A DNA stretch of 64,000 bases from Terriglobia bacterium (GTDB lineage: Bacteria > Acidobacteriota > Terriglobia > 20CM-2-55-15), in the NCBI GenBank assembly GCA_965198225.1, contig CBDAOY010000008.1, positions 768,012-832,011 of the forward strand, written 5' to 3'. Under the pieces are notes generated by a model, which was not told the origin of the DNA, ran no database searches, and worked only from the letters and a program-made list of their open reading frames with translations. Positions 394 to 62,072 of the stretch are shown piece by piece (the first letter of the stretch is position 1; every line of letters begins with the position of its first letter). The translations under genes and the position numbers were made by a program.

Positions 394-2472
394 GTGATTC
401 GCCGCGTTGCGCTCTTCGTCTCCTGTCTTGTAGATCAGTTTTATCCTCAGGTCGGCTTCGACACCGTCCGGGTGCTGGAACGCGCCGGACTGGAGGTGAT
501 CGTTCCGCCCGACCAGACCTGCTGCGGACAGCCCGCCTGGAACAGCGGATACCATGACGAAGCGCGAGGTGTGCTCGAAGCCGCCGGGCGATGTCTGGCG
601 TCTGCGGACGTGGACGCGGTTGTGGTTCCATCCGGTTCCTGCGCGGCCATGATGCGCGTCTCCTCGGCGGAATTGACCGATAGTCCTCCGGCCGTGTTCC
701 AGAGGACCTACGAATTGTCGGAGTTGCTCGTCCACCAGATGGGGATCGAGGACATCGGCGCGAGGTTCGAGGCGAAGGTCGTCTACCACGATTCCTGCCA
801 TCTGCTCCGCGGCCTCGGTGAGTCCGTCGCGCCACGCCGTTTGCTTGGGGCAGTCAAGGGGCTGGAGCTGCTCGAGATGCCGGAGGCTGAATGCTGCGGG
901 TTTGGCGGCGCGTTTTCAATCAAGATGCCGGCGATCGCGAACGCGATGCGTTCGGACAGGATCGACGCCATTGTTGCCAGCGGAGCAAACGCGGTCGTGT
1001 CGGCCGACATGGGTTGTCTCATGCATCTTAGTGGTGGTCTGAGCGACAAGGGGGGCCGCGGTGCGGACTCTGCATCTCGCGGAGGTCCTGGCCAGATCAT
1101 GAAGTCCTTCACAGACCGAGTCGAAGAAGCGCTGACCAATTCGGGACTTCAGCGTGCCCTAACGTCGGGGACGCGGCTGGCGCGGCAGAACCGCGCCGAG
1201 GCGTTCGAATGGATGCAGGGCGAGGGACTCGAGACGGAGCAGATGCGTGAGGCGGCCCATCGGACCAAGATGGAGATTCTCGGAGACCTGGACCGATGGC
1301 TGGATCGACTCGAGGAGAGCGTCGTCGCCAACGGCGGCGTGGTCCAGCGAGCGGGAACGGCCGCGGAGGCCTGCGACTACATCCTTCGGCTTGCAGACGA
1401 CAACGATGTTCGATCGGTCGTGAAGAGTAAATCGATGGTCACCGAAGAGATCGATCTCAACGAACGGTTCGAGCGCGCCGGTATCGAAGTCCTGGAGACG
1501 GACCTTGGGGAGTACATCATTCAGCTCGCGCAGGAGCGCCCCTCCCACATCGTTGCTCCGGCGATCCACAAGTCCCGTTCCGACGTTGCCGACCTGTACC
1601 ACGAACTGTTTGGCACCGATCGCGACATGACGGCGGCCGAGCTGACAGCGTGGACGCGGCGGCGGCTTCGCCCCCGGTTCCTGGACGCGGACATGGGCGT
1701 ATCCGGTGCGAACTTCGCGATCGCCGACACCGGAACCCTGGTCATCGTCGAAAACGAAGGCAACGCCCGGTTGACGACGAGTGTTCCGCGAATCCATGTA
1801 GCGGTCACAGGCATCGAGAAAGTGATCCGCTCCTGGACCGATTTGCAGACGCTACTGCCGTTGCTGCCGACCAGCGCGACGGGCCAGCGGATTACCAGCT
1901 ACGTTTCGTTCCTGAACGGCCCGCGCCGCCCGGGTGAAACCGAGGGTCCCGAGCAATTCCACCTCATTCTCCTCGACAACGGCCGCCGCGAGATCCACAG
2001 CGACCCGGTCTTCAGGGAAGCGCTCGCTTGCATCCGGTGTGGCGCCTGCCTCAACGCATGTCCCGTTTATAGTCGAATCGGGGGGCACGCCTACGGATGG
2101 GTGTACCAGGGACCGATCGGCGCCGTCATCACTCCCCACCTGAAGGGAATCGAGGCGGCAGGAGAACTGCCCTTCGCATCGTCGCTTTGCGGTGCCTGTA
2201 TGGACGCGTGTCCCGTAAAGATCGACATTCCCAGCCTCCTCATTCATCAACGCGATCGCATCAACCGGGAGGACCGCCCGCACGCACCGTTCGAGCGGTG
2301 GGCCTTCAGGCTGTGGAGCTGGTTTGCCGCCCGGCCGCGAATGTATCGTCGAGGCGCTCGTCTTGGGCGTTGGTTAGTGACTCGGAAAATACCCGCGACA
2401 AGGACGGGTAAGAAAAGTTTCCTGGAACAATGGAACTCGTCAGGAAATTCGAAGCAGCAGCGCGCACACTAG
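394..2472 (+). CDS. Fused LutA-LutB lactate utilization Fe-S oxidoreductase (N-terminal CCG-domain protein, C-terminal 4Fe-4S/DUF162 protein)
   Basis: GTG start; N-terminal CCGQPAWN and ECCGFGGAFS motifs (LutA/GlcF-like); C-terminal CIRCGACLNACPVY and CGACMDACPV ferredoxin motifs (LutB). Confidence 0.8.
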   Translation: MIRRVALFVSCLVDQFYPQVGFDTVRVLERAGLEVIVPPDQTCCGQPAWNSGYHDEARGVLEAAGRCLASADVDAVVVPSGSCAAMMRVSSAELTDSPPAVFQRTYELSELLVHQMGIEDIGARFEAKVVYHDSCHLLRGLGESVAPRRLLGAVKGLELLEMPEAECCGFGGAFSIKMPAIANAMRSDRIDAIVASGANAVVSADMGCLMHLSGGLSDKGGRGADSASRGGPGQIMKSFTDRVEEALTNSGLQRALTSGTRLARQNRAEAFEWMQGEGLETEQMREAAHRTKMEILGDLDRWLDRLEESVVANGGVVQRAGTAAEACDYILRLADDNDVRSVVKSKSMVTEEIDLNERFERAGIEVLETDLGEYIIQLAQERPSHIVAPAIHKSRSDVADLYHELFGTDRDMTAAELTAWTRRRLRPRFLDADMGVSGANFAIADTGTLVIVENEGNARLTTSVPRIHVAVTGIEKVIRSWTDLQTLLPLLPTSATGQRITSYVSFLNGPRRPGETEGPEQFHLILLDNGRREIHSDPVFREALACIRCGACLNACPVYSRIGGHAYGWVYQGPIGAVITPHLKGIEAAGELPFASSLCGACMDACPVKIDIPSLLIHQRDRINREDRPHAPFERWAFRLWSWFAARPRMYRRGARLGRWLVTRKIPATRTGKKSFLEQWNSSGNSKQQRAH

Positions 2473-6289: not shown

Positions 6290-6345
6290 ATCCCCGTTGG
6301 CCGGTTTTGAAGTGACCATCGTTGGCCGGTTTTGAAGTGACCACT
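6290..6345. repeat. Direct repeats CGTTGGCCGGTTTTGAAGTGACCA x2, likely IstA-binding repeats of the IS21 right end
   Basis: Two 24-nt direct copies 3 nt apart immediately downstream of istB, as expected for multi-repeat IS21 termini. Confidence 0.4.
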
Positions 6346-6612
6346 GAGGCCCGGAGCGATGCGCATCCATAGGTCCGGGTTGTGGCGAAGTGGATCGATT
6401 GAAGGGTTGGCTAAAGAGGGGTCGGAGCCTCTTCCTCGTCCTGCCCGGGTGACAATATAGATACGAATTGGCAGATCCCCAGGGACGAAATGGCAATGGG
6501 CGTAATCCACTGATACAAAAGGGGATGCGAACTCACACGAAAGCTCGGGGAAACAGCCCTGGTGCTGATATCATGGTTCGATATCAACCAATCGGAGGTT
6601 CGCAGCGCAGCC

Positions 6613-7743
6613 ATGATACGAGGCAAATCTTCTGTCGTTCGGATTGTTCTGATCACATTGACCGGTCTGATGCTGACTGCCGCCTGTGCATCCGAGCCAC
6701 CGCAGTCGTCCCTGGAAAAGATCAACCTTCCGTCGGGTTTCAGCATCAGCACTTACGCTGAAGGCGTGCCCAACGCGCGGTCCATGGCGCTCAGTCCCGA
6801 CCAGACGTTGTACGTGGCGACCCGCCGGGCGGGCAACGTCTACGCGGTCCGCGACGACGATGGGGACAACAGGGCGGATAGAGTGTTCACCATCGCTTCG
6901 GGCCTGACGATGCCTAACGGCGTGGAATTCCGGGAGGGTGCGCTCTATGTTGCGGAGGTCAACCGCGTCCTCCGATACGACGGCATCGAGGGCAAGCTGG
7001 AGAACCCACCGTCGCCCGTGGTGCTCAACGACACACTACCCACGGAAACCCACCATGGCTGGAAGTATCTTCGCTTCGGACCGTACGGCAAGCTGTACTT
7101 CAATATCGGAGCTCCCTGCAACATCTGCGAGCCTGGCGATCCCTATGGTTCGATCGTCCGTATGAATCCGGACGGCACCGGTCTCGAAGTGTTCGCGCGG
7201 GGCGTTCGAAACAGCGTCGGCTTCGACTGGCATCCGGAGTCCGGCGATCTCTGGTTCACCGACAACGGCAGGGACAACCTGGGTGACGACGTCCCGCCCG
7301 ACGAATTGAATCGGGCCTCGGAGGCCGGAATGCATTTCGGCTACCCGTACTGTCACGGCCAGGACATCGCCGACCCCGAATTCGGTAGGTCCGGTCTCTG
7401 CGCCGAATACCAGCCCGCGGCCCAGAATCTGGGACCGCATGTCGCGGCCATCGGTATGACTTTCTACACCGGCGACATGTTTCCGGATGAATACAGGAAC
7501 CAGATCTTCATCGCGGAACACGGCTCCTGGAACCGAAGCGTCCCGATCGGCTACCGCCTGACGCTGGTCCGACTTGAAGGGAACAAGGTTGTCAGCTACC
7601 AGCCTTTTGCCGAGGGCTGGCTCGAGGGCGACGAGGACTGGGGTCGCCCGGCCGACGTCCTCGAGATGCCGGACGGCTCACTCCTGCTTTCCGACGATAC
7701 CGTCGGTGCGATCTACCGAATCACCTACGAAGCGGAAAGATAG
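6613..7743 (+). CDS. PQQ-dependent soluble sugar (glucose/sorbosone) dehydrogenase, lipoprotein-type signal
   Basis: ...LTGLMLTAAC signal/lipobox; YVATRRAGNVYAVRDDDGD, GLTMPNGVEF, FTDNGRDNLGDDVPPDELN, HFGYPYCHG are SGDH beta-propeller motifs. Confidence 0.8.
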   Translation: MIRGKSSVVRIVLITLTGLMLTAACASEPPQSSLEKINLPSGFSISTYAEGVPNARSMALSPDQTLYVATRRAGNVYAVRDDDGDNRADRVFTIASGLTMPNGVEFREGALYVAEVNRVLRYDGIEGKLENPPSPVVLNDTLPTETHHGWKYLRFGPYGKLYFNIGAPCNICEPGDPYGSIVRMNPDGTGLEVFARGVRNSVGFDWHPESGDLWFTDNGRDNLGDDVPPDELNRASEAGMHFGYPYCHGQDIADPEFGRSGLCAEYQPAAQNLGPHVAAIGMTFYTGDMFPDEYRNQIFIAEHGSWNRSVPIGYRLTLVRLEGNKVVSYQPFAEGWLEGDEDWGRPADVLEMPDGSLLLSDDTVGAIYRITYEAER

Positions 7744-7782
7744 GCTAGGATCTACCGAATCACCTACGAAGCGGAAAGATAG
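7710..7782. repeat. 34-bp direct duplication of the 3' end of the PQQ-dehydrogenase gene (GATCTACCGAATCACCTACGAAGCGGAAAGATAG x2 separated by GCTAG)
   Basis: Exact copies at 7710-7743 and 7749-7782; the second copy abuts a family-1 element. Confidence 0.6.
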
Positions 7783-8056
7783 GACTCCTAGGCGGCCACC
7801 AAAACTCCCCTCCTCAGACCACCCCGTCTGCGCCCCTGGCGCAGCCACCTCCTTATCAAGGAGGGGAGTCCGGGGTGAGGCGAAGGGCCGGGGTGGTGTT
7901 GATCAATAAAATCCCGCCTAAACTTCTGGCGCATCCAATAGCGTGATCCAACCACCCCGTCTGTGCCTTCGGCACATCCACCCCTCCTTATCCAGAGGGG
8001 AGTCGGCTCTCGTCAAGGACAGTGCCGCCACAACGGCCTACGGATAACGGCCTACG
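7783..8056. repeat. Composite repeat block: family-1 modules (two nested copies) followed by a family-3 GGCCTACG motif
   Basis: GGACTCC...CTCCCCTCCTCAG...CTGCGCCCCTGGCGCAG...GGAGGGGAGTCC, then ...CTGTGCCTTCGGCACA...CCAGAGGGGAGTC, then CAACGGCCTACGGATAACGGCCTACGCC. Confidence 0.5.
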
Positions 8057-8059
8057 CCT

Positions 8060-10128
8060 TCACTCCTCCGGGTACGGGGTCCGGTTTCTGTAAACGATCC
8101 ACAACGTGGACACGAGTGTGACTGCGGCCAGGACGTAGACGACGGGGTCGAGCTGATCCACCGGGAATCCCTGTTCACCGGCCCAGATCGCCAAGGCGTT
8201 GTTTCCAATGTGAAGTACGATTCCGGGAAAGATCGACCCGGTCATCAGCGCGACTGCGGTGATCACGATGCCGAGGAATCCGGTCGTGATGATCCTGAAG
8301 ATCGTCACGTGGAAGAACCCGAAGATGCCGCCGACGACGAGTGCGAGCACCACCGGCCGGAACTTGCGGCGCAGACCGTAGAGTAGAACTCCCCTGAAAC
8401 CGATTTCCTCGCAGATTCCGGGCAGCACCGCCACGAAAAACATCAACTGCCACAGCGGCAGCCCCTCGGCGGCGAAGGCCTCCGACATCTGCTCCATGAC
8501 GCTCTGAGGGACTGGGAATACCGTGCTCGCGAACGCCAACACTGGGATAGCACTGAGCGACATGGCAGGCAGCATCAGCAGGATCACCGGCCAGAGACCG
8601 ACTCGAATCGGTCTGATCGCCAGGGTCTTTCGAGGGTCGAGTCCGTAAACCTTGACGATCAGCAGCGTGGTCCCGATGAACAGCACCAGCTCGTTGAAAA
8701 TGAGCTGAGCGCGCAGAGTGCCCAGCTGCGGCACTCCTATCGCGACACCGAACATCACCGCCCAGAGCACGGCAAACCATCGCCAGACGTTTGCCCGGAA
8801 AGCCGCCGGACCGGTCATCTGTGCCGGGTGCCGCTCCTGTGTGGCCGTGATGAGACGTTCCTCTCCGAGCAGGCCGGCCGAAAAGCGGACGAGCGTGAAG
8901 GCCAGCAGGGAATTGACCAGAAAGGCAACCACGGTCATCGGCCAGTCGGGGTTGCCGGCCAGGACCTCCCTGGCGGCGACACTGACGTTGGCTACCGGGA
9001 CGAGTGCGATAGCGGACCGCAGGTCGACGCCCGGGATCGCGCCGGCGAAGGCCGGCAGCATGCCCACCATATAGACAGGAAAAAAGTATAGCTGGGCCTC
9101 CTTGTACGACTTTGCGTAGGCGGACAGCATCAGGAGGACTCCGGCGACAAGAACGGCAAGCGGAACGTAGAGCAGCATCAAAGCGAGCGCAGAAGACGTC
9201 GATACCCGAAAAACGAAGTCCTCCGGCAGAGGAATGATGTCGAAGCTGGTGTAGACGAGAAGGTTGCCGACCTGGATCAACGTGATCACGAGAGCGACTG
9301 CCATGATGACCAGCTGCTTGGCGGCGATGATGTCGGTCCTGCCGGCGGCCGTCGTGAGGAGGGTTTCCAGCGTGCCACGCTCCTTCTCGCCGGCAATGAT
9401 GTCCATGGCCACGACCGAGCCGCCGGTCAAGGTGAGCAGGAACAGGAAGGCGGTGATGAACCGACCGATCTGGAGACCCGATGTCTCGGCCGCCGAGGCC
9501 ATGCTGGTTTCTTCAATCGCTATGAGTTCGGAGAATCGAATGGGGATTCCCCTGTCTTCGAAAGCGCCTTCGGCCCCATCCCGTCGGCCCAGCGTCAGCA
9601 GTCGCCGCATCCTGTTCGCACCGTCGGCTGCGGATGCCCTGTTGCCGGGAACGAAGATCTGGATCACGGGAACGCCGTCCAGGCGCCGGGCGAGTTCGTG
9701 CGGAAGTTCCCCGTCCTCATCATCCTGTTCGTCCTCGCGCGCCGCCCATTCCTCATCCGCGGCTCCGGAGCTCAGCGCGTTCAGATAGAACTGAATTTCG
9801 CGTTCCCGGAGGCTGAGTTCCGGGTCCGGAACCTGCACCTCGTGACGTTTGAAGTTGTGCAGCTCCGAATCCGGGTCCGATTGCAGGGCCTCCTCGGCAC
9901 GACCGATCAAAAGACGTGCCTCCTCGCTCCAGTCACCGGTGATTGCGTAGTCGTAGACGGTCTCCACGAGTTGCAGGTCCCGGCGTTCCGAAGCGAAGCG
10001 GGTGGCGAACAACATCACGGGCATGACCAGCATGGGAAGGATGATCGAGAGGATGATCGTCCGCCGCGACCGCAGGAGCGTGCGGATTTCCAGCTGCCAG
10101 ATGAGACGAACCGTGTCCCAGTTCAATG
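8060..10128 (-). CDS. ABC-2 family permease fused to a C-terminal CPBP (CAAX/Abi) intramembrane protease domain
   Basis: Multi-TM permease; C-terminus carries CPBP motifs EEIGFRG, FGFFH and HIGNN; TTG start overlapping the ATPase stop (ATTGA); the longer ORF 8060..10213 overlaps the ATPase. Confidence 0.65.
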
Positions 10129-14395: not shown

Positions 14396-15913
14396 TCAAT
14401 TCAATCGAAAGATCGTGCAACACGCCGATCGAAAGGCTTCTTCAGCTTCGGGGTCGGAATTGAGCGCGCGAATCAGATTGCCGTGATCGTTCGTCACGAA
14501 GACAAGCCGAGACTGAAAGTCGTTCCGTATGACTTCCGCCGCTCGATTACCGGTGCGCGTGACGTCGACGTACCTGTCGTACAGTTCGGGGTCCTTCAGG
14601 TACATGAACAGAGGATCGAGCCCCACGATGAAGGTGTTTTCAGGAGCGGCGTAGAATAAGACCGGGAAGTCGTCCCAATCGGCGTTGAACACCCGCTCGC
14701 CGGGCCCGGTGTTTTCCCTGAACCATCCGGCCGCTTCGAGAGCCGGGCGATCGATTCCTTCACCCTGGAGTTCGTCGATCGCAGCACGCCCATTCGACCA
14801 GGCGAAGAAGCCGGCCAGGACCAGTGCCGCCGTCATCGACACCGCCTTACGGTATCCGGCCCAGGGGAAGGGTCTGGCTCCAACAGCGACCGCTGCCAGC
14901 AGAACGGAGAACAACGGCCAGTATTCCGAGAAGCGCCGGTGCTTCAGAAAGAGCACAAAGAAGAGGACCGACACCAGGGCCAGCGCATATCGGGCGGTGC
15001 GATTGTTCTCATCGGAAGCCCTCGCGAAGCCGAGCCCCGCGAGGAAGCATGTCAGCGCGATCCAACTGCTGGACAGCAGGTGGTCGGTCTCGAATGGGTA
15101 CCACTCGTTGCCCACGCGAACCGGAAACCCGCCGATGAGCTTGGAGCTGGCATGCACGATGACGAACCTCGCGTAGTCGAGCATGTAAGGGTGAATCAAC
15201 ATCCCCGCGAGCATCCCGGCGCCGGCGAACCAGATCGGATCAAGATTCCATTTTCCCTCGGCCACGGCCGCTCCGAGCACGGTCAAGGCCACAACGCCGC
15301 CCAGCATCGGGAAGGCCGCGTAGGTCCAGGCAAAGATAAAACCGACGGCGAACAACCCCCAGCGATACCGGCCGAGCGTGAGCCAGCAACCCAGCAGCAA
15401 CAGGATCGCACCCAGCGACTGGGCGCGAAGCAGGGACATCCGGTAGAGAAAAGGCTCCGATGCCGCTCCCAGGAGCACGAACCAGAACCACGGCCACCGC
15501 ACGCCGAATTTGCGGAGGAGGAAAAAGAAGGTTCCCGCCATCGCCGTAGCGAAGACGACGGCGGCGAGTTTCACCATGATCATGGGATCGCCGAGCGCGG
15601 TGAACGGTGCCATGAGGGCATGGAACAGGTAGTGGTGATCTGCGAAGTCGGCCTCCGATAGGATCGTCATCGAGAGGTAATCGAAGCGGAATGGCAGGAA
15701 GAGATGATCCAGCATGAGGGCGGCCATTCGCGCGTGATAGTACCCGTCGAATCCGGCCAGACCCGTCACCGAGAACTGAATCCACCCGAAGAATCCGAAT
15801 GCCAGAGTCAGCGCCAGGGTGTACTGGTAGAAGGGTCTACGGATGAGGACTGCTGCCAGCGCCAGGCTCGGGGGTTCTTCGCCCCGGGTCGATGATGTGG
15901 TTTCCTCGAGCAA
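14396..15913 (-). CDS. Polytopic membrane protein, candidate GT-C-type (PMT/ArnT-like) glycosyltransferase
   Basis: About 11 predicted TM helices plus a C-terminal soluble domain; follows a GT2 polyprenyl-phosphate sugar synthase homologue in the same operon; family assignment is inferred from architecture, no catalytic motif confirmed. Confidence 0.4.
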   Translation of the reverse strand: MLEETTSSTRGEEPPSLALAAVLIRRPFYQYTLALTLAFGFFGWIQFSVTGLAGFDGYYHARMAALMLDHLFLPFRFDYLSMTILSEADFADHHYLFHALMAPFTALGDPMIMVKLAAVVFATAMAGTFFFLLRKFGVRWPWFWFVLLGAASEPFLYRMSLLRAQSLGAILLLLGCWLTLGRYRWGLFAVGFIFAWTYAAFPMLGGVVALTVLGAAVAEGKWNLDPIWFAGAGMLAGMLIHPYMLDYARFVIVHASSKLIGGFPVRVGNEWYPFETDHLLSSSWIALTCFLAGLGFARASDENNRTARYALALVSVLFFVLFLKHRRFSEYWPLFSVLLAAVAVGARPFPWAGYRKAVSMTAALVLAGFFAWSNGRAAIDELQGEGIDRPALEAAGWFRENTGPGERVFNADWDDFPVLFYAAPENTFIVGLDPLFMYLKDPELYDRYVDVTRTGNRAAEVIRNDFQSRLVFVTNDHGNLIRALNSDPEAEEAFRSACCTIFRLN

Positions 15914-16063: not shown

Positions 16064-16837
16064 CTACGGCGTGTCGTGCCGTTCGGCCGGTAGTTCGCCG
16101 CGAGTAGGCACCTCGCCCCACCGGACGCTCCACCAGACCCGCGGCAGCTCGAGCAGCGCGCGAAGGACCACGTCGAGCCGCGCTCCCGATTGCCGGCCGT
16201 GCCGACGGGCGTAGTGGTGGACTCCGATCTCTTCAAACACGTGCCCGCGCAAGCGGAGGCGCGCGAGCAGTTCGGCGTTGAAGAGAGCTCCGGTCGAAGA
16301 AAGGGAGACTCCGGCGATGGCGGACCGCCGGAAGAGCTTGAAGGCGCAATTCATATCCCTGCAATGGACACGCAGGACCACCCCGATCAGGGTCGTGTAG
16401 AGGGAGCCGAGCAGTCCCCGTCCCGTGGCATCCTGGCGGTTCAACCGGTACCCGAGTACGCCATCCGCTTCGCCGAGGACTTCGATGAGCCTGGACAACT
16501 CGGAAACGTTGAACTGGCCGTCGGCATCGGTGAAGAAGACGAACTCGAACCTCGCTGCTTTCATCCCGCTCCAGACAGCGGCGCCATACCCGCGATTCCG
16601 GACGTGTATCACGGTCCGCAACGTTGGATATTCCGATTGCAGCCGTTCGGCTTCGTCCTCGGTACCGTCGGTGCTGCCGTCGCAGACGACGATGATCTCG
16701 TGCGTTTCCGCGCAGGAAACGCCCGTTGCCGCAGCTTCTCGGACGACATCGGCGAGGTTCTCTCGCTCGTTGTGACACGGAAGGACGATGGAAAGTCCGG
16801 ATAGCCTCAACCTTCTCTCCTCATCTGTTCCATCCAC
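16064..16837 (-). CDS. GT2 family glycosyltransferase, polyprenyl-phosphate sugar synthase type (Dpm1/GtrB/Ppm1-like)
   Basis: ...LSIVLPCHNERENL..., ...VVCDGSTDGTEDEA..., ...FFTDADGQF... (DXD); 257 aa. Confidence 0.8.
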   Translation of the reverse strand: MDGTDEERRLRLSGLSIVLPCHNERENLADVVREAAATGVSCAETHEIIVVCDGSTDGTEDEAERLQSEYPTLRTVIHVRNRGYGAAVWSGMKAARFEFVFFTDADGQFNVSELSRLIEVLGEADGVLGYRLNRQDATGRGLLGSLYTTLIGVVLRVHCRDMNCAFKLFRRSAIAGVSLSSTGALFNAELLARLRLRGHVFEEIGVHHYARRHGRQSGARLDVVLRALLELPRVWWSVRWGEVPTRGELPAERHDTP

Positions 16838-17556
16838 CGGCGCTCCTCGAGTGCCGCAACAAGGAAACAGGTCACGGCGACCAACTCCACTCCTTCGTCC
16901 CAGAAGTCGACGTACCAGTTCCCTCGGGTCGCGGCGGGGAACAGGCCGACGTCAAAAAATTGCGACAATGTAAAGAGCGCAACTCCGGCGGCAGCCAGCC
17001 GTCCCGAGCTTCTCCGGAACAACTGCCGGAACTGTCCGGTCCGGATCAACGGTCGGATGAGAAACACGAGCAGGGTCAGAACGACCCCTGCCAGCAACAA
17101 GGTGATAAGCAAGGTCAGCCAGGGTTGGTGCTGGAAAAGGTCCTCGAGAGTATTGTGGACGTTCAACATGTTGTAGTCGACCCTTCCTTCCCGTACCGCC
17201 CTGATCTGCCGGGTCACGTTGCCCCAGTCGGATTCCTCACCCGCGCCCAGGATGCCGAGAACGCCGACGGCCCGCCAGCAGTTGGGGAAGGAGGGTCGCA
17301 GGTCGCGACTGGCAGCCTGAAACGCAAATACGGAGAGGAGGATGTAGCCGACGAACTGTGCCGTTTCGACCGGACCGTTCTCCTGGAGCACAACAAGGAC
17401 GAAGTCCGATTGGGGTTCGACCAGCATCAGCAGTTCGACGATGCTGACGAACAGGATTACCAGGCCGAGAGAAAGCCGAGTCGAAGGGCTCGTCGAGGCT
17501 CGTGAACGCGGTGGGTCCGCCGTAAACGCGCGGCCGAGGAACGTTTCCGCCTTCAC
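16807..17556 (-). CDS. Hypothetical integral membrane protein (operon partner of GT2/GT-C and the pilin genes)
   Basis: Several TM helices; 4-nt overlaps with neighbours on both sides indicate co-transcription. Confidence 0.45.
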   Translation of the reverse strand: MKAETFLGRAFTADPPRSRASTSPSTRLSLGLVILFVSIVELLMLVEPQSDFVLVVLQENGPVETAQFVGYILLSVFAFQAASRDLRPSFPNCWRAVGVLGILGAGEESDWGNVTRQIRAVREGRVDYNMLNVHNTLEDLFQHQPWLTLLITLLLAGVVLTLLVFLIRPLIRTGQFRQLFRRSSGRLAAAGVALFTLSQFFDVGLFPAATRGNWYVDFWDEGVELVAVTCFLVAALEERRWMEQMRREG

Positions 17557-18779
17557 TTCCGGACCTCCCGGAACGTGATGACCCTGGTCCGGATCGACGA
17601 GAGGTAGTTGCTTATCCGAGTCATGTCGAGCGCCAACTCGAAGCTGCCTCCTCCTTCGAAGTCCCCCCCGGCGATCGCCGCGCCATAGAGATTGTGGACC
17701 GACCCCCCTCCGCCAACGTCGAAATTTCCGGAACAGATGATCAGACCGTAGAAGGCGATGTTGGACAGGTCGACATCGCCGTCCGCGATGAGGATGCCGT
17801 AGGCGCTGTTGTTGTTTCCGTTGATGTCCACGGAACGGTCGCTGTACATGAGCGCAGGATTGGCGTCTGTGCCCACGGCAAAGCCAGTGTAGCGGTAAAG
17901 GTCGGATTGGGTGACCGTCGGCGTCGCGAGATCCGTTATCGGCGTGAAAGCGGCGCTGGCGGCGGCGACGTAGCTGGCGACGTCATAGTCGGGGCTGACG
18001 CTTCCGACCATGTCGTTCGGCGCTGCCGGGAAGAACAACTGGGTCGGGGGACTGGGAGTCGGAGGGGACGTATCTGCAGCCCGAACGCCGTCGACAGTCA
18101 CACCGGCAGTCACGTCGATTCCGTTGACCGAGATGTTTCCCTGCAGGGTCACGTCCCCGTTGGTTCGAACCACAGCGTCGATCGTAGGGCTGATGATGAA
18201 TGCCGGAACGATTTCAGCCTCGACCAACTCTCGACGCCCGTTGAGGGTGGCGTAGGCCTGGATCGTCCGGATCGGCACGCCGTTGCCGGTCAGATTTCGG
18301 GTCAGGTTGCCCGTCGTAGCGTCCGGTCCCAGGTAGACGACAGTGGTCGCGTCCAGACCAGCGACACCGTCGATGTCCCGGTTCTTGTTTGCTTCAGTGT
18401 TGTAGAAGATCTTGACCAGGACGTAAGGCGGGGTTCCCCCCAGCGCGGTCGCGACGGAGGTCGAGCCGTATCCACCGTATGCGGGATCCAGACCCAGGAT
18501 GTTGACGGTCGTGTCCGAGCGGATGTACCCGGCCCAGTTGGCCGTCGGTACCGCTGGCAGACTGGGTAGCTGCGACGCGGAACCGTAAAGAAGGCGTGCG
18601 CGCGCCTCCTCGATCCCGGCATCCGCGAAGTAAAACAGTTGGAGATTCCGTTCCAGGACCGAACTCGAGCGAGCATCCTCGAGCAGGTTCATCATCAGCA
18701 GGAGGGTCAGCGCGCTCATCATCGAGAGCAGGATCAGGACCGTGATCAGCGCGACTCCGCGTGCTTTCGATGCTCTCAT
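17553..18779 (-). CDS. PilX/GspK-like large minor pilin (PilX N-terminal domain)
   Basis: N-terminus MRASKARGVALITVLILLSMMSALTLLL is a typical PilX_N/GspK hydrophobic segment; 408 aa. Confidence 0.6.
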   Translation of the reverse strand: MRASKARGVALITVLILLSMMSALTLLLMMNLLEDARSSSVLERNLQLFYFADAGIEEARARLLYGSASQLPSLPAVPTANWAGYIRSDTTVNILGLDPAYGGYGSTSVATALGGTPPYVLVKIFYNTEANKNRDIDGVAGLDATTVVYLGPDATTGNLTRNLTGNGVPIRTIQAYATLNGRRELVEAEIVPAFIISPTIDAVVRTNGDVTLQGNISVNGIDVTAGVTVDGVRAADTSPPTPSPPTQLFFPAAPNDMVGSVSPDYDVASYVAAASAAFTPITDLATPTVTQSDLYRYTGFAVGTDANPALMYSDRSVDINGNNNSAYGILIADGDVDLSNIAFYGLIICSGNFDVGGGGSVHNLYGAAIAGGDFEGGGSFELALDMTRISNYLSSIRTRVITFREVRK

Positions 18780-18841
18780 CGTCCTATCCGCCTCCGTGCG
18801 GATTGTCGATCATCTTGCAGGCGCTCCAGGGCGTCGGTGTC

Positions 18842-19981
18842 TCATCGGCTTGAATTCGAGTTGGAGTTGCCGTTCGAGTTGGAGTTGCCGTTCGAATTGA
18901 AGTTGCCGTTCGAGTTGGAGTTGCTGTTCGAGTTGGAGTTGCTGTTCGAGTTGGAGTTGGAGTTGCTGTTGCTGTTGGAGTTGCCGTTCGAATTGGAGTT
19001 GGAGTTCGTGTTCGAGTTGGAGTTCGTGTTGCCACCACCACCATTGGCGTTGCCGCCATTGCCGTTGCCCCCGGAGGGCGTCGTCATGAAGCCGAGGATC
19101 CCGCTCCGCCGAAGCGTGACGTCGGAGCTGAGGGTCACGTTGATCTGATTACCCGAGACGGGGTGGTTCTGACTCGCGAAGGATGTGACCGAGAGGTTGA
19201 TCCGCGTGATATTGCCGAGGGTGCCGGTCGGAACCGAACTCTGTCCGCTACCGCCGCCGCTACCACCGCTGCCACCGCTACCGCCGTTCCCGTTGGAATT
19301 TGTGTTGCCGTTGGAGTTCGAATTCGTGTTGCCGTTCGAGTTCGTGTTGCCGTTCGAGTTTGAATTCGAGTTGGAGTTGCTGTTCGAGTTGGAGTTGCTG
19401 TTCTGGTTGGAGTTGCTGTTTGAGTTGGAATTGCCGTTCTGCGCTGCCAACGTGATGAAGCCCCATCGGCGGAGGAGTCGAGCGACGGGAGACGCCGTGG
19501 GTGACGGGGGATTGCTGACGAAGCTTCCGGCATCACCGGTCGACACGAAATACGCAAAGAGCAACGCCGAGATATTGGATGCCAGTTGCTGCGACGTCGC
19601 CGTGCCTGTCAGGGCACCGGTCGCGTCCAACGGTTGTGTCGTCCGTGTGATGATGTTGTTGGCGTAGCTGAACGTCACCCGTTCGACCGTTCCGTCATCA
19701 TTCGTGTCGCCCGAAAAGGCGACCGTGGACTGATCGGCCTGGGCGATCGGCGTCACACCGGCGGGAGTGTTGTAGCCGGCGGACAGCAATTCCCGCCCGA
19801 TGCGTTCGGCTGCGAGCCGGGAATTCTGGCCGGCCTCGAGCTGGGACTGCTGGATCTGATAGGTTCTCTGATTCTGGGTGACGAGGAGAAAGACCGCTCC
19901 GAGGACGACCATCAACACAGCCACAACGATCAAGACTTCCAGCAGGGTGAAACCTTTGCTTCCTCTCTGTGCAGCTCTCAT
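18842..19981 (-). CDS. PilW/GspJ-like prepilin-type minor pilin with a long Asn/Ser/Gly-rich repetitive C-terminal tail
   Basis: Class III signal ...SKG|FTLLEVLIVVAVLMVVLGAV; C-terminal (NSNSNG)n, GGSGGSGGSGGGSG and (NSNSNS)n tracts encoded by hexanucleotide repeats. Confidence 0.6.
   Translation of the reverse strand: MRAAQRGSKGFTLLEVLIVVAVLMVVLGAVFLLVTQNQRTYQIQQSQLEAGQNSRLAAERIGRELLSAGYNTPAGVTPIAQADQSTVAFSGDTNDDGTVERVTFSYANNIITRTTQPLDATGALTGTATSQQLASNISALLFAYFVSTGDAGSFVSNPPSPTASPVARLLRRWGFITLAAQNGNSNSNSNSNQNSNSNSNSNSNSNSNSNGNTNSNGNTNSNSNGNTNSNGNGGSGGSGGSGGGSGQSSVPTGTLGNITRINLSVTSFASQNHPVSGNQINVTLSSDVTLRRSGILGFMTTPSGGNGNGGNANGGGGNTNSNSNTNSNSNSNGNSNSNSNSNSNSNSNSNSNSNSNSNGNFNSNGNSNSNGNSNSNSSR
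18850..19032. repeat. Tandem hexanucleotide/18-nt repeat tract 1 (GAGTTG/GAGTTC units) inside the pilW-like gene
   Basis: gttcgagttggagttgccgttcgagttggagttgc... repeated; encodes (NSNSNG)n on the minus strand. Confidence 0.75.
19288..19440. repeat. Tandem hexanucleotide repeat tract 2 inside the pilW-like gene, preceded by a GGTAGCGGC repeat (19237-19290)
   Basis: gttggagttcgaattcgtgttgccgttcgagtt... encodes NSNSNSN; the GGS-coding repeat lies immediately upstream on the coding strand. Confidence 0.75.
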
Positions 19982-20000
19982 AGACAAACTCTCCCTCGTG

Positions 20001-20405
20001 TTACGGGGCCCGATAGGTTCGGGCCGAGAGGTCGATCGGCGATGTTCCACCGATACCGGTGATAACGGTCGTGGTCACCGTGATCTCTTTCATCCCGACG
20101 CCCGGGGAATCGACTGTGACGGTCCAGGATCGGGTGAAGGCAGCTCCTGTCTCGGAAGTTTGCGGAATCCCGTCATCGTCCAGAAAGTCATTTCCGCTCT
20201 GCAAGGAATCATACGATGTGGCCTTCAATTCCTCCATCTTTTGTCGCAGGGCGGAGGTCATCCTCGAGATGTCCTGACTGTTCTTCGTTCCGATGACACT
20301 GGTGCTCATCGCGCCGGCCACCGCGAGGACGCCCGTCATCAGGATGAGCGAGGCAAGCATCAACTCGATGAGGCTGAAGCCTCTCTGGCTACTGGATGCT
20401 GACAT
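20001..20405 (-). CDS. PilV/GspI-like prepilin-type minor pilin
   Basis: N-terminus MSASSSQRG|FSLIELMLASLILMTGVLAV is a prepilin cleavage/methylation motif; 134 aa. Confidence 0.65.
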   Translation of the reverse strand: MSASSSQRGFSLIELMLASLILMTGVLAVAGAMSTSVIGTKNSQDISRMTSALRQKMEELKATSYDSLQSGNDFLDDDGIPQTSETGAAFTRSWTVTVDSPGVGMKEITVTTTVITGIGGTSPIDLSARTYRAP

Positions 20406-20940
20406 GGCTGGTTCCGGACACGGTTACCTGGAGGCTGTTCCCCAGATCGTTCGTCACCGTGACGGTGTAGTTCGCGGTGATGTAATCATTGTTCAGATCC
20501 ACGACGTCGCCCGCGCTGTCGAACGAGATTGCGTGGACTCCTGCCGAGACCGTCGGCGCGTTCGAAGAAATGTCGACGCCGCTTGGAAGCACGATCGGGT
20601 CGCCGAGATCCGCGTAGACGGTGCCAGCCGTCAGGGAAAAGGGAGCCGTCGGGACGACGCGCTGTCGCTTGTAGGAATTGGCGTTCGTCGCCGACGTGGA
20701 GGCATAGAGCAGTATCCGATAGCCGGTGGTGTCCGAGATCGCGTCAAAGTGGCTGCGCTGAACCAGGGCGGCGATGCCGCGGGCCGACCCGTCGAGGACG
20801 TAGTTGGCGTTGATACTGGTCAGGTTCGGCACCGCTATGGCCAACACGATCAGCATGATAGCGATAACCATCGCTACTTCGAGCAAGCTGAAGCCGCGGT
20901 TTGTTCGAGCCAATCCTTTACCTCCTCCAGTTTGCCGCAA
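20389..20940 (-). CDS. FimT/FimU/GspH-like prepilin-type minor pilin
   Basis: ...TNRG|FSLLEVAMVIAIMLIVLAIAV; an internal TTG at about 20910 with an 8-nt GGAGGAGG RBS may be the real start (7-aa leader). Confidence 0.65.
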   Translation of the reverse strand: MRQTGGGKGLARTNRGFSLLEVAMVIAIMLIVLAIAVPNLTSINANYVLDGSARGIAALVQRSHFDAISDTTGYRILLYASTSATNANSYKRQRVVPTAPFSLTAGTVYADLGDPIVLPSGVDISSNAPTVSAGVHAISFDSAGDVVDLNNDYITANYTVTVTNDLGNSLQVTVSGTSHVSIQ

Positions 20941-61561: not shown

Positions 61562-62072
61562 GGTGTAGGTGCGCTCTATGAGCGCACGTGTTTCGATTTG
61601 AAGAGTGTGCGGTCATAGACCGCACCTACACGTATCGCAAATTGCGATATTTGAAAGAATCCACATTGCAGGTTGCTCATTGGAGATTGTTTTCATTTCA
61701 GATTTCCGACCAATAAGAAATCGAGCAATTTGCAATCTCCAAATTTCCACTGCGGAATCGTCCAGTGACCAATCTGCAATGGCTGTCGGACGAGGTCCCC
61801 AGCCACCTCACTCGATCGAGTAGAGTGTGCGGTCATAGACCGCACCGACACCTATCGCAATTGCGAGATTTGAAAAGAATCCACATTGCAGGTTGCTCAT
61901 TGGAGATTGTTTCATTTCAGATTTCCGACCAATAAGAAATCGAGCAATTTGCAATCTCCAGATTTCCAATGCGGAATCGTCCAATGACCAATCTGCAATA
62001 GCTGTCGGACGAGGTCCCCAGCCATCTCCCTCGATCGAGTAGAGTGTGCGGTCATAGACCGCACCTACACGT
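61562..62072. repeat. Tandem repeat: two roughly 220-bp low-GC units, each bounded by the hairpin GAGTGTGCGGTC-ATA-GACCGCAC(C)TACAC(G) (three hairpin copies at 61603, 61823, 62042) and preceded by a variant hairpin at 61562
   Basis: Unit period 220/219 bp with about 95% identity between units; GC content well below the window average. Confidence 0.75.

Follow-up and report, generated by a model that had tools for sequence, protein, structure and literature searches.

Introduction

The Ser-Asp regions of the staphylococcal proteins ClfA, ClfB, Sdr and Fbl are dipeptide arrays whose degenerate 18-bp coding units use TCN as well as AGY codons for serine. They show in-frame copy-number polymorphism, keep their peptide despite variation in the DNA, and form a hydrophilic stalk on a surface protein. 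The SD repeats are modified with O-GlcNAc in the cytoplasm by SdgA and SdgB. In Fbl, the degenerate 18-bp units occur in 9-52 copies among strains and were stable over 30 subcultures (PMC6533592). Here, we describe a comparable arrangement in 64,000 nt of DNA (hereafter the window) from a Terriglobia bacterium (GCA_965198225.1, contig CBDAOY010000008.1, positions 768,012-832,011, forward strand). A gene in the position of the minor pilin PilW/GspJ contains two repeat tracts. As a whole, these are best explained, with a probability of about 0.72, as translated parts of the pilin that form in-frame variable Asn-x arrays (Asn alternating with a second residue, x).

The window pilin resembles the Ser-Asp regions in its degenerate 18-nt units with mixed serine codons, its in-frame copy-number polymorphism and its conserved peptide, and its arrays would likewise form a hydrophilic stalk. 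Indeed, the NCBIfam models for SdrD, SdrC and ClfA match its residues 321-375 by composition. The differences lie in the residue and the host. The Asp of the staphylococcal repeats is replaced by Asn, and the hosts of the Ser-Asp regions are LPXTG wall-anchored adhesins, whereas here a diderm carries the arrays in a type IV pilin-like protein. Unlike the adhesins, the window pilin carries two arrays, one of them in an internal loop, and projects no ligand-binding module.

Modular minor pilins provide a second parallel. Extra C-terminal sequence on such pilins is expected at the filament tip, as for Streptococcus sanguinis PilB (PMC8179133). The window pilin shares a C-terminal addition on a minor pilin with S. 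sanguinis PilB and PilC and with CofB and TcpB. However, it has no folded module after a linker-like sequence; the added part is the array itself, and a second array interrupts the pilin domain.

Contingency loci of Neisseria, Haemophilus and Helicobacter form a third, with repeat-mediated, heritable and reversible variation of a gene for a surface structure. Those loci use long perfect tracts of 1-7 nt units and switch ON/OFF through reading frame or promoter spacing, whereas the window holds imperfect 6- and 18-nt units that vary length alone. In-frame repeat polymorphism of surface proteins is already well known from pathogens. The present locus shows such polymorphism, strictly centered on Asn, in a predicted pilus-tip minor pilin of uncultured soil Acidobacteriota.

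Two repeat tracts in one coding sequence

A preliminary description of this DNA had placed tandem hexanucleotide and 18-nt repeats, in frame, in the tail of a pilW-like gene. Tandem Repeats Finder located three arrays, all of which fall inside the minus-strand open reading frame (ORF) 18842..20050. The first, at 18855..19031, has a period of 18 (9.5 copies, 81% matches, score 195) and was also read as period 6 (27.8 copies, 69% matches). The second (19283..19441) consists of overlapping arrays with periods of 18/24/36/42, and the third (19245..19286) is a short GGS-coding array of period 9/12. No comparable arrays were found in the remainder of the 64-kb window. The repeats are thus in frame within a real coding sequence, and their units of 6 and 18 nt are multiples of 3, both as first proposed. 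At the DNA level they are imperfect, with a longest perfect run of 52 nt for the 18-nt unit (2.9 copies) and of 18 nt for the 6-nt unit (3 copies).

The coding sequence (18842..19981, minus strand) encodes 379 amino acids (aa) plus a stop codon, with a probable start at ATG 19981. All parts named below are read on the same strand. Tract 1 as a whole (19244..19438) is an internal loop composed of (Asn-x)n followed by (GGS)n. Its first part, tract 1a (19286..19438, aa 182-232), alternates strictly between Asn and x, where x is Ser, Gly, Thr or Gln. Its second part, tract 1b (19244..19285, aa 233-246), is a (GGS)n/GGGSG linker that continues the tract. Tract 2 (18845..19081, aa 301-379) forms the C-terminal end of the protein. 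It runs from TPSGG through NG/NANGGGG into an Asn-x array (x = Ser, Gly, Thr, Ala or Phe) and ends in NSSR. The N-x runs span 52 residues in tract 1 and 60 in tract 2. Altogether, Asn makes up 40-43% of the tracts, as compared to 3.0% of nine other genes in the window.

Between the tracts lies a conserved, non-repetitive segment of 162 bp (19082..19243, aa 247-300, QSSVPTG...INVTLSSDVTLRRSGILGFM). As this unique segment parts the two tracts, 18845..19081 is the sole tail. The description of the repeats as a pilin tail therefore holds for this tract, while 19244..19438 is an internal insertion before the conserved segment. Likewise, the GGS repeat had been placed between two flanking tracts; its actual place is directly after the upstream tract, at the 3' end of the latter in gene sense.

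An alternative-frame ORF at 18784..19059 (minus strand, ATPTRTAT...) does exist, and it is the +1 frame of the same repeat. It is a by-product rather than a gene of the window, in agreement with its earlier dismissal as an artefact. Neither tract has a stop codon in sense frame +1. Frame +2 has none in tract 2 and three in tract 1.

Repeat number differs among close relatives

To compare alleles, we used syntenic orthologues in Terriglobia metagenome-assembled genomes (MAGs). Three (L003, L004 and L005) came from a scan of species-representative genomes. Four further copies of the whole operon (L006, L007, L009 and L010) were reached by searching with a 505-aa protein encoded downstream. Together with the window and an orphan copy (L001), these make nine alleles, on separate contigs and from at least seven sample or MAG records.

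Asn-x tracts occurred at the same two positions in 9/9 alleles, and these positions are kept across alleles of 54-88% identity. Tract lengths varied widely, from 13 to 99 aa for tract 1 and from 18 to 139 aa for tract 2. The window allele has tracts of 65 and 79 aa (tract 1 and tract 2, respectively), L006 of 99 and 97 aa, and L003 of 58 and 139 aa. Shorter tracts were found in L005 (28 and 31 aa), L007 (40 and 59 aa), L004 (23 and 38 aa), L009 (25 and 38 aa) and L010 (29 and 38 aa). The orphan L001 has the shortest of all (13 and 18 aa).

The closest relatives were the most informative. L004, L009 and L010 share 99.8% identity over 14-23 kb aligned. Within their 11.5-kb colinear block, the sole multi-base indel (0/+6/+18 nt) lies in tract 1, which reads (NS)6, (NS)7 and (NS)9, respectively; all other differences are of single bases. 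Between L005 and L007 (97.3% identity), tract 1 shows an indel of 36 nt and tract 2 shows two, of 6 and 90 nt. Elsewhere in 10.5 kb, this pair shows one 2-nt indel and others between the genes for the GT2 and GT-C glycosyltransferases described below. For the window and L006 (93.5% identity), the indels are of 60+24+18 nt in tract 1 and 18+30+6 nt in tract 2.

In these close comparisons, every tract indel was a multiple of 6 nt. Sequencing errors would rarely show this regularity, and closely related strains therefore differ in repeat number, in frame. An assembly artefact was ruled out by the same regularity and by the identical tract sites in nine alleles. The behavior is that of a variable-number tandem repeat (VNTR), with a unit that is a multiple of 3, degenerate DNA and a copy number polymorphic among strains.

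These results bear out the earlier proposal that the tracts change length without a frameshift. A constant repeat number, which would have spoken against it, is contradicted by the 0/+6/+18 nt series of L004, L009 and L010. Nor do the tracts lie outside the coding sequence, as frame, middle segment and Asn-x pattern are kept in the eight other alleles.

The orphan PilW-like copy (L001 8001..8771; 256 aa, 54% identity) lies outside any pilin operon and has a degraded leader (GVSLTE) and a 9-residue deletion in the N-terminal helix. One additional contig, L002 (936 bp), is about 85-88% identical to the window until tract 1 and then continues into unrelated sequence (760..936). It probably reflects an assembly break or a chimera caused by the repeat. 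As its sequence breaks a few repeats into tract 1, L002 was set aside as a length allele.

Asn is retained while codons and partner residues change

Across the nine alleles, Asn was invariant at alternating positions and was never replaced within the arrays. In comparison, x was Ser, Gly, Thr, Ala, Gln, Glu, Phe or Arg. In the window, Ser is foremost, then Gly, Thr and Ala. The linker position of tract 1b was also variable, being poly-Gly in L003 and SSSS in L005 and L007.

The underlying DNA differed by lineage. Serine codons in the tracts included TCC, TCG, AGC and TCA. The dominant hexamers were AACTCA in L004, L009 and L010; AACTCC, AATTCC and AATTCG in L005 and L007; and AACTCC, AACTCG and AACAGC in the window, L006 and L003. 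All of these lineage-specific hexamers encode N-S. The tracts are rich in AAY, contrary to the genome GC content of 61%.

As judged from the aligned alleles, Asn is constrained at the amino acid level while x and the synonymous codons drift. This pattern would be expected if slippage or recombination homogenizes the units within each lineage while selection keeps Asn. A plus-strand DNA or RNA element composed of the GAGTTG repeats was considered and rejected, as the hexamers differ by lineage while the Asn-x peptide and its frame are conserved.

The pilin gene and its operon

The N-terminus of the window protein has the class III signal peptide of type IV pilin-like proteins, in which a short basic leader with Gly at -1 precedes Phe at +1, Glu at +5 and a hydrophobic helix. 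It reads MRAAQRGSKG before the cleavage mark and FTLLEVLIVVAVLMVVLGAVF after it, the latter opening with FTLLEV. The prepilin leader, the cleavage/methylation motif and the start of the hydrophobic helix are encoded at 19889..19966 (minus strand, aa 6-31; G10, F11 and E15). They match Pfam N_methyl (PF07963; 31 bits, cut-off 21.2) and TIGR02532 (16.6 bits, cut-off 16.3). In the family alignment, G10 and E15 are nearly invariant. N_methyl was the only Pfam family reported for the window pilin. It was also the sole Pfam match of its relatives, one of which adds T2SSJ below the cut-off.

Gene order was used to define the class of this pilin. It is flanked by FimT/GspH-like, PilV-like and PilX_N/GspK-like genes, so it occupies the PilW/GspJ position, and the order FimT-PilV-PilW-PilX is the same in seven other loci. 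The first gene of the operon (20389..20940, minus strand) encodes the FimT/GspH-like minor pilin, with N_methyl and weak GspH and Verru_Chthon cassette D matches, and is syntenic. The PilV-like minor pilin (20001..20405, minus strand) has N_methyl and, as its best NCBIfam match, type_IV_pilV below the cut-off, together with conserved synteny. The PilX/GspK-like minor pilin (17553..18779, minus strand) matches Pfam PilX_N at 29.2 bits (cut-off 25.5). The latter is the most divergent gene of the operon, with 61% identity to L003 as compared to 86-97% for its neighbors. Such divergence suggests diversifying pressure on the pilus tip. The PilX-like gene also carries several small in-frame indels relative to L006.

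The wider family was collected by an exhaustive search of 1.84 billion representative proteins, which gave 2424 matches at E ≤ 1e-3. As just two of these reached E ≤ 1e-30, the clade of the window pilin is rare in public data. Exact protein look-up of the window pilin found no record. Scans of Joint Genome Institute metagenomes, with a protein pattern and a degenerate DNA pattern for RELLSAGYNTP, also found no match. Literature searches on Asn-rich minor pilins and on DUF5667 (a domain of proteins described below) found nothing relevant.

Typical relatives have about 200 residues and end about 7 residues past the start of a '...DVxxRN' motif. The nearly invariant R/N column of the family aligns to residues 291-292 of the window pilin (motif 'DVTLRR' / 'DVxLR[RN]'). 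Tract 1 therefore expands a loop before the last conserved segment, and tract 2, together with the short SGILGFMTTPSGG piece, is an addition past the usual C-terminus. The segment at 19082..19243, which holds this C-terminal motif and is kept in all orthologues, may make up the final beta-strands of the pilin domain. Asn-x tracts of this kind are missing from most of the wider family. Two distant relatives (P0085 and P0049) instead combine a PilW-like core with an S/T-rich linker and an extra domain, as in the modular pilin PilB of S. sanguinis (PMC8179133).

Glycosyltransferase-type genes downstream of the pilins

Three genes follow the pilins on the minus strand. The first (16807..17556) encodes a 249-aa protein and shares 4 nt at its start with the end of pilX. 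Hydrophobic stretches suggest that it is probably a membrane protein. It could be a lipid-sugar flippase, but it matched no family, flippases included; Pfam gave nothing useful at E ≤ 10 and NCBIfam no significant match. The second (16064..16837) encodes a GT2 glycosyltransferase of the ArnC/DPM1/GtrB type (Pfam Glycos_transf_2, E 1.6e-25). Its best NCBIfam matches were ArnC, AglJ, PpgS and dolichyl-phosphate hexose transferase, all far below their equivalog cut-offs, making it a candidate polyprenyl-phosphate sugar synthase. From pilX through the 249-aa gene to the GT2 gene, the start of each gene overlaps the end of the one before it.

The third gene (14396..15913), after a gap of 150 nt, encodes a 505-aa membrane protein. 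No Pfam or NCBIfam model matched it even at E ≤ 10. Searches against the PDB by phmmer, with a profile of the whole family and with a profile of the C-terminal domain found no GT-C enzyme. Assignment was instead facilitated by an AlphaFold2 model with a predicted local distance difference test (pLDDT) score of 92.8, built from a 73-sequence alignment. In Foldseek, 25/25 significant PDB matches of this model were GT-C enzymes, with STT3 first (E 5e-9). For the transmembrane domain, AglB and STT3 matched best; the soluble C-terminal domain, compared separately, matched the globular domain specific to oligosaccharyltransferases (OSTs). The model thus appears to contain both the transmembrane and the C-terminal globular domains of an OST. 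These structural matches place the 505-aa protein firmly among GT-C glycosyltransferases, with a predicted fold closest to OSTs. Sequence membership in the OSTs was not found, as no STT3 model matched and the motif is DWDDF rather than WWDYG, to which the profile searches did not align it. Invariant positions in its family are D56, E270, DWDDF (412-416) and GLD (431-433).

The order pilins - 249-aa - GT2 - GT-C is kept in 6/7 operon-bearing relatives. In L004 (10219..12767), the GT2 gene is split by an insertion sequence with a 510-aa DDE transposase, and the 249-aa gene of this lineage has moved upstream, to the other strand. L009 and L010 appear to have the same arrangement, as the same transposase is present at about 7381..9238.

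Several described systems resemble this neighborhood. STT3, AglB and PglB act on Asn in flexible segments. They match the transmembrane domain of the modelled 505-aa protein best in structure, and its C-terminal domain separately, but this protein is much shorter, has no sequence similarity to them, carries the invariant DWDDF and would have an acceptor without N-x-S/T. As with TfpW and TfpO/PilO of Pseudomonas aeruginosa and PglL of Neisseria, a polytopic membrane glycosyltransferase gene stands beside pilin genes. Those enzymes modify Ser/Thr of the major pilin, whereas the candidate target here is conserved Asn of a minor pilin. The window GT-C family is unrelated to them in sequence, and pilin modification in this locus is a candidate function. 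Pilin glycans change surface properties and phage susceptibility (bioRxiv 10.1101/2020.04.19.049825; 10.1101/150227).

The three-component systems GtrA/GtrB/Gtr* and ArnC/ArnT likewise combine a GtrB/ArnC-like GT2, a further gene and a GT-C enzyme in one neighborhood (PMC11127046). The predicted fold of the 505-aa protein would supply the GT-C-fold glycosyltransferase of such a system. The known systems, however, decorate O-antigen, lipid A or cell-wall glycans, and the 249-aa protein matches no flippase family.

Asn-rich tails near GT-C homologues

We scanned every locus for Asn-rich proteins. Stop-to-stop ORFs of 80 aa or more were covered, and those with 30% Asn or more over any 30 residues counted as positive. 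Among 388 ORFs in the 64 kb of the window, the PilW-like gene was the single positive. In the Terriglobia loci it was again the sole true positive, lying 2.9-4.1 kb from the GT-C gene.

Distant homologues of the GT-C protein (about 34-39% identity) were present in Chloroflexi-like contigs with no pilins nearby. There, the gene belongs to a cluster of an extracytoplasmic function (ECF) sigma factor, a DUF5667 anti-sigma-like protein, the GT-C protein and a small lipoprotein. Both the DUF5667 protein and the lipoprotein end in N/D-rich repeat tails (e.g. ...NDNSNDDNSNDDNGDDNG...). ORFs with such tails were found in L013 (9615-10202 and 10858-11874), L014 (1849-2652 and 3442-4581), L016 (5048-6070 and 6677-7975) and L018 (8244-9881). 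In L013, L014, L016/17 and L018/19, they were the sole Asn-rich positives, at 29-1934 nt from the GT-C gene. Three contexts had no Asn-rich ORF: the rearranged Terriglobia locus L008, L011 (a short contig) and L020/21, whose GT-C gene is a 29%-identity outlier that lies among other GT-C genes.

Classical N-glycosylation sequons were considered for the tracts and rejected. As the +2 position is always Asn in the arrays, no N-x-S/T is possible there, and none was found within the alternating arrays. The sequon that defines OST acceptors is therefore missing from them. Sequons of the window pilin are confined to N136, N257, N262, N281 and N376, and those of the conserved segment are not kept among orthologues.

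Discussion

Our data suggest a model in which one array has expanded in the loop that precedes the final conserved segment of the pilin domain, and the other has been appended as a free C-terminal tail. Both change size in frame, by 6 nt at a time and often by 18 nt; replication slippage, or else unequal recombination among the imperfect repeats, would account for these changes. FimU-PilVWX-type minor pilins form the pilus tip complex. By analogy, the arrays may be disordered, hydrophilic and exposed on this complex, where array length would set the amount of Asn-rich chain shown at the tip. With lower confidence, the arrays might be multi-site acceptor or spacer regions tied to the neighboring GT2 and OST-like GT-C genes.

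Several observations weigh against this model. The curated PilW/GspJ models all score below their cut-offs (e.g. TIGR01711 gspJ, 13.4 bits against 64.85). A profile of 53 relatives reached PDB GspJ chains (5bw0, 3nje and 5vtm) at weak E values of 0.04-0.47. These type II secretion system protein J chains were the sole profile matches past the first 80 positions, the region of the N-terminal helix. The preliminary label of a pilW-like gene thus draws on gene order and weak profile matches. The AlphaFold2 model of the pilin, from a 10-sequence alignment, was unusable (pLDDT 34.5), so exposure of the loop and tail rests on sequence alignment.

Individual alleles also contain oddities. In L003, 8925..9120 reads 63 tail residues in the +1 frame (PMATPTAVATPTAV...TPTRT), between two compensating frameshifts near 'ggcggtCCaatgg' and 'tcgaacGaacagc'. 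This is either a real double frameshift tolerated by open sense frames or an error of the assembly consensus. In L006 (5780..5850), a TAA stop precedes the prepilin Gly (MNSAKRKN-stop-GFTLLEV) beside an A6 run, as expected of either a pseudogene or a homopolymer error. Together they hint that either the precise sequence can be dispensed with or there are errors in the assemblies. All alleles are metagenome-assembled, most apparently from long reads, and the contig tags _2x_/_4x_, if they denote coverage, make L006 and L007 low-coverage. The L006 stop may accordingly be an error.

That the Asn-x arrays are the glycan acceptor of the neighboring OST-like GT-C protein would extend, rather than exclude, the model of in-frame variable arrays. 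We regard it as possible, though on balance doubtful. In such a pathway, a lipid-linked sugar would come from the ArnC-like GT2, with the 249-aa protein serving as flippase. GT2, flippase and GT-C enzyme together constitute an established periplasmic glycosylation route (PMC11127046). In support, the modelled 505-aa protein has an OST-like fold with AglB/STT3 as best matches, its C-terminal domain matching as well. A further gene and an ArnC/DPM1-type GT2 gene come directly after pilX, and the order of pilin, GT2 and GT-C genes is conserved in all Terriglobia relatives examined. Four Chloroflexi-like contexts pair GT-C homologues with N/D-rich tails, and the invariant residue is Asn, not Ser. 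As a GT-C gene and a rare Asn-rich tail occur together in two unrelated contexts, with Asn invariant, an acceptor role is plausible.

Several points, however, argue against such a role. The arrays are by construction free of the N-x-S/T sequon, and the 505-aa protein has no sequence similarity to any known OST, with DWDDF where a WWDYG-like motif might be expected. Known OSTs use diphosphate-linked oligosaccharides rather than the monophosphate sugars of GtrB/ArnC-type enzymes. The 150-nt gap between the GT2 and GT-C genes means that they may not be co-transcribed, and the synteny seen in a single clade could be mere inheritance. The Chloroflexi-like loci have one conserved cluster in common and are not four independent observations, while Terriglobia L008 and the outlier L020/L021 have no Asn-rich neighbor. 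Generalizing the idea, Asn-x arrays may be multi-site acceptors, without N-x-S/T, of an unrecognized OST-like GT-C family that acts on a tip pilin in Terriglobia and on DUF5667 proteins and lipoproteins in Chloroflexi-like bacteria. This we offer as a tentative and rather doubtful proposal.

The tracts could also be neutral low-complexity expansions, tolerated in a loop and at a free end. The tenfold length range among alleles is consistent with this, as are the mere 13 + 18 residues retained by the orphan L001, the frame-shifted stretch of 63 residues tolerated by L003 and the lack of tracts in most of the wider family. We nevertheless consider it unlikely. In nine alleles, Asn is never replaced, in contrast to x and the synonymous codons, which turn over, and both insertion sites are kept down to 54% identity. 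Moreover, the composition opposes the GC bias of the genome, and Asn-rich tails recur beside GT-C homologues in an unrelated context. Lineage-specific codons, a fixed Asn and AAY codons used against GC bias together make a purely neutral origin unlikely.

A classical contingency locus, in which a hypermutable simple-sequence repeat switches often within a clone, is quite improbable. Repeat number does differ among assemblies of 99.8% identity, and the gene product is a subunit of a surface organelle, next to a PilX that is evolving fast too. However, the longest perfect tract is just 2.9 x 18 nt or 3 x 6 nt, and high switching rates are not expected of imperfect repeats. The staphylococcal 18-bp analogue was stable over 30 subcultures (PMC6533592). 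An ON/OFF switch is impossible with units that are all multiples of 3 nt; we found no long perfect short-unit tract, and all changes were in frame. The behavior is that of a VNTR, not of contingency switching in the classical sense.

Finally, it is very unlikely that the tracts form an O-glycosylated stalk rich in Ser, like the Ser-Asp repeats of staphylococci or the substrates of mycobacterial PMT, since Ser is not the conserved feature: x is mostly Gly or Ala in tract 1 of L003, and the partner of Asn is mostly Asp or Gly in the Chloroflexi-like tails.

In-frame variable Asn-x arrays make the repeat tract a natural strain marker. They also suggest diversifying pressure on the pilus tip in soil, where phages, grazers or varied surfaces could be among its sources. 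Beyond the pilin, a GT-C family with a predicted fold closest to OSTs adjoins Asn-rich tails in two unrelated gene contexts. If an acceptor role were true, this would be a new bacterial protein-glycosylation system with a non-canonical acceptor, in which repeat number tunes the glycan load on the pilus tip.

Two further repeats were noted in the window, in which an Rfam scan over the whole 64 kb returned zero matches. An intergenic tandem duplication of 219 bp (61602..62070; 2.1 copies, 94% identity, low GC), itself without an Rfam match, has the hairpin GTGCGGTCATAGACCGCAC at the borders of each copy, with another of similar form just upstream, at about 61568..61590. A perfect direct repeat of 25 bp, CGTTGGCCGGTTTTGAAGTGACCAT, is present in two copies at 6295..6354.

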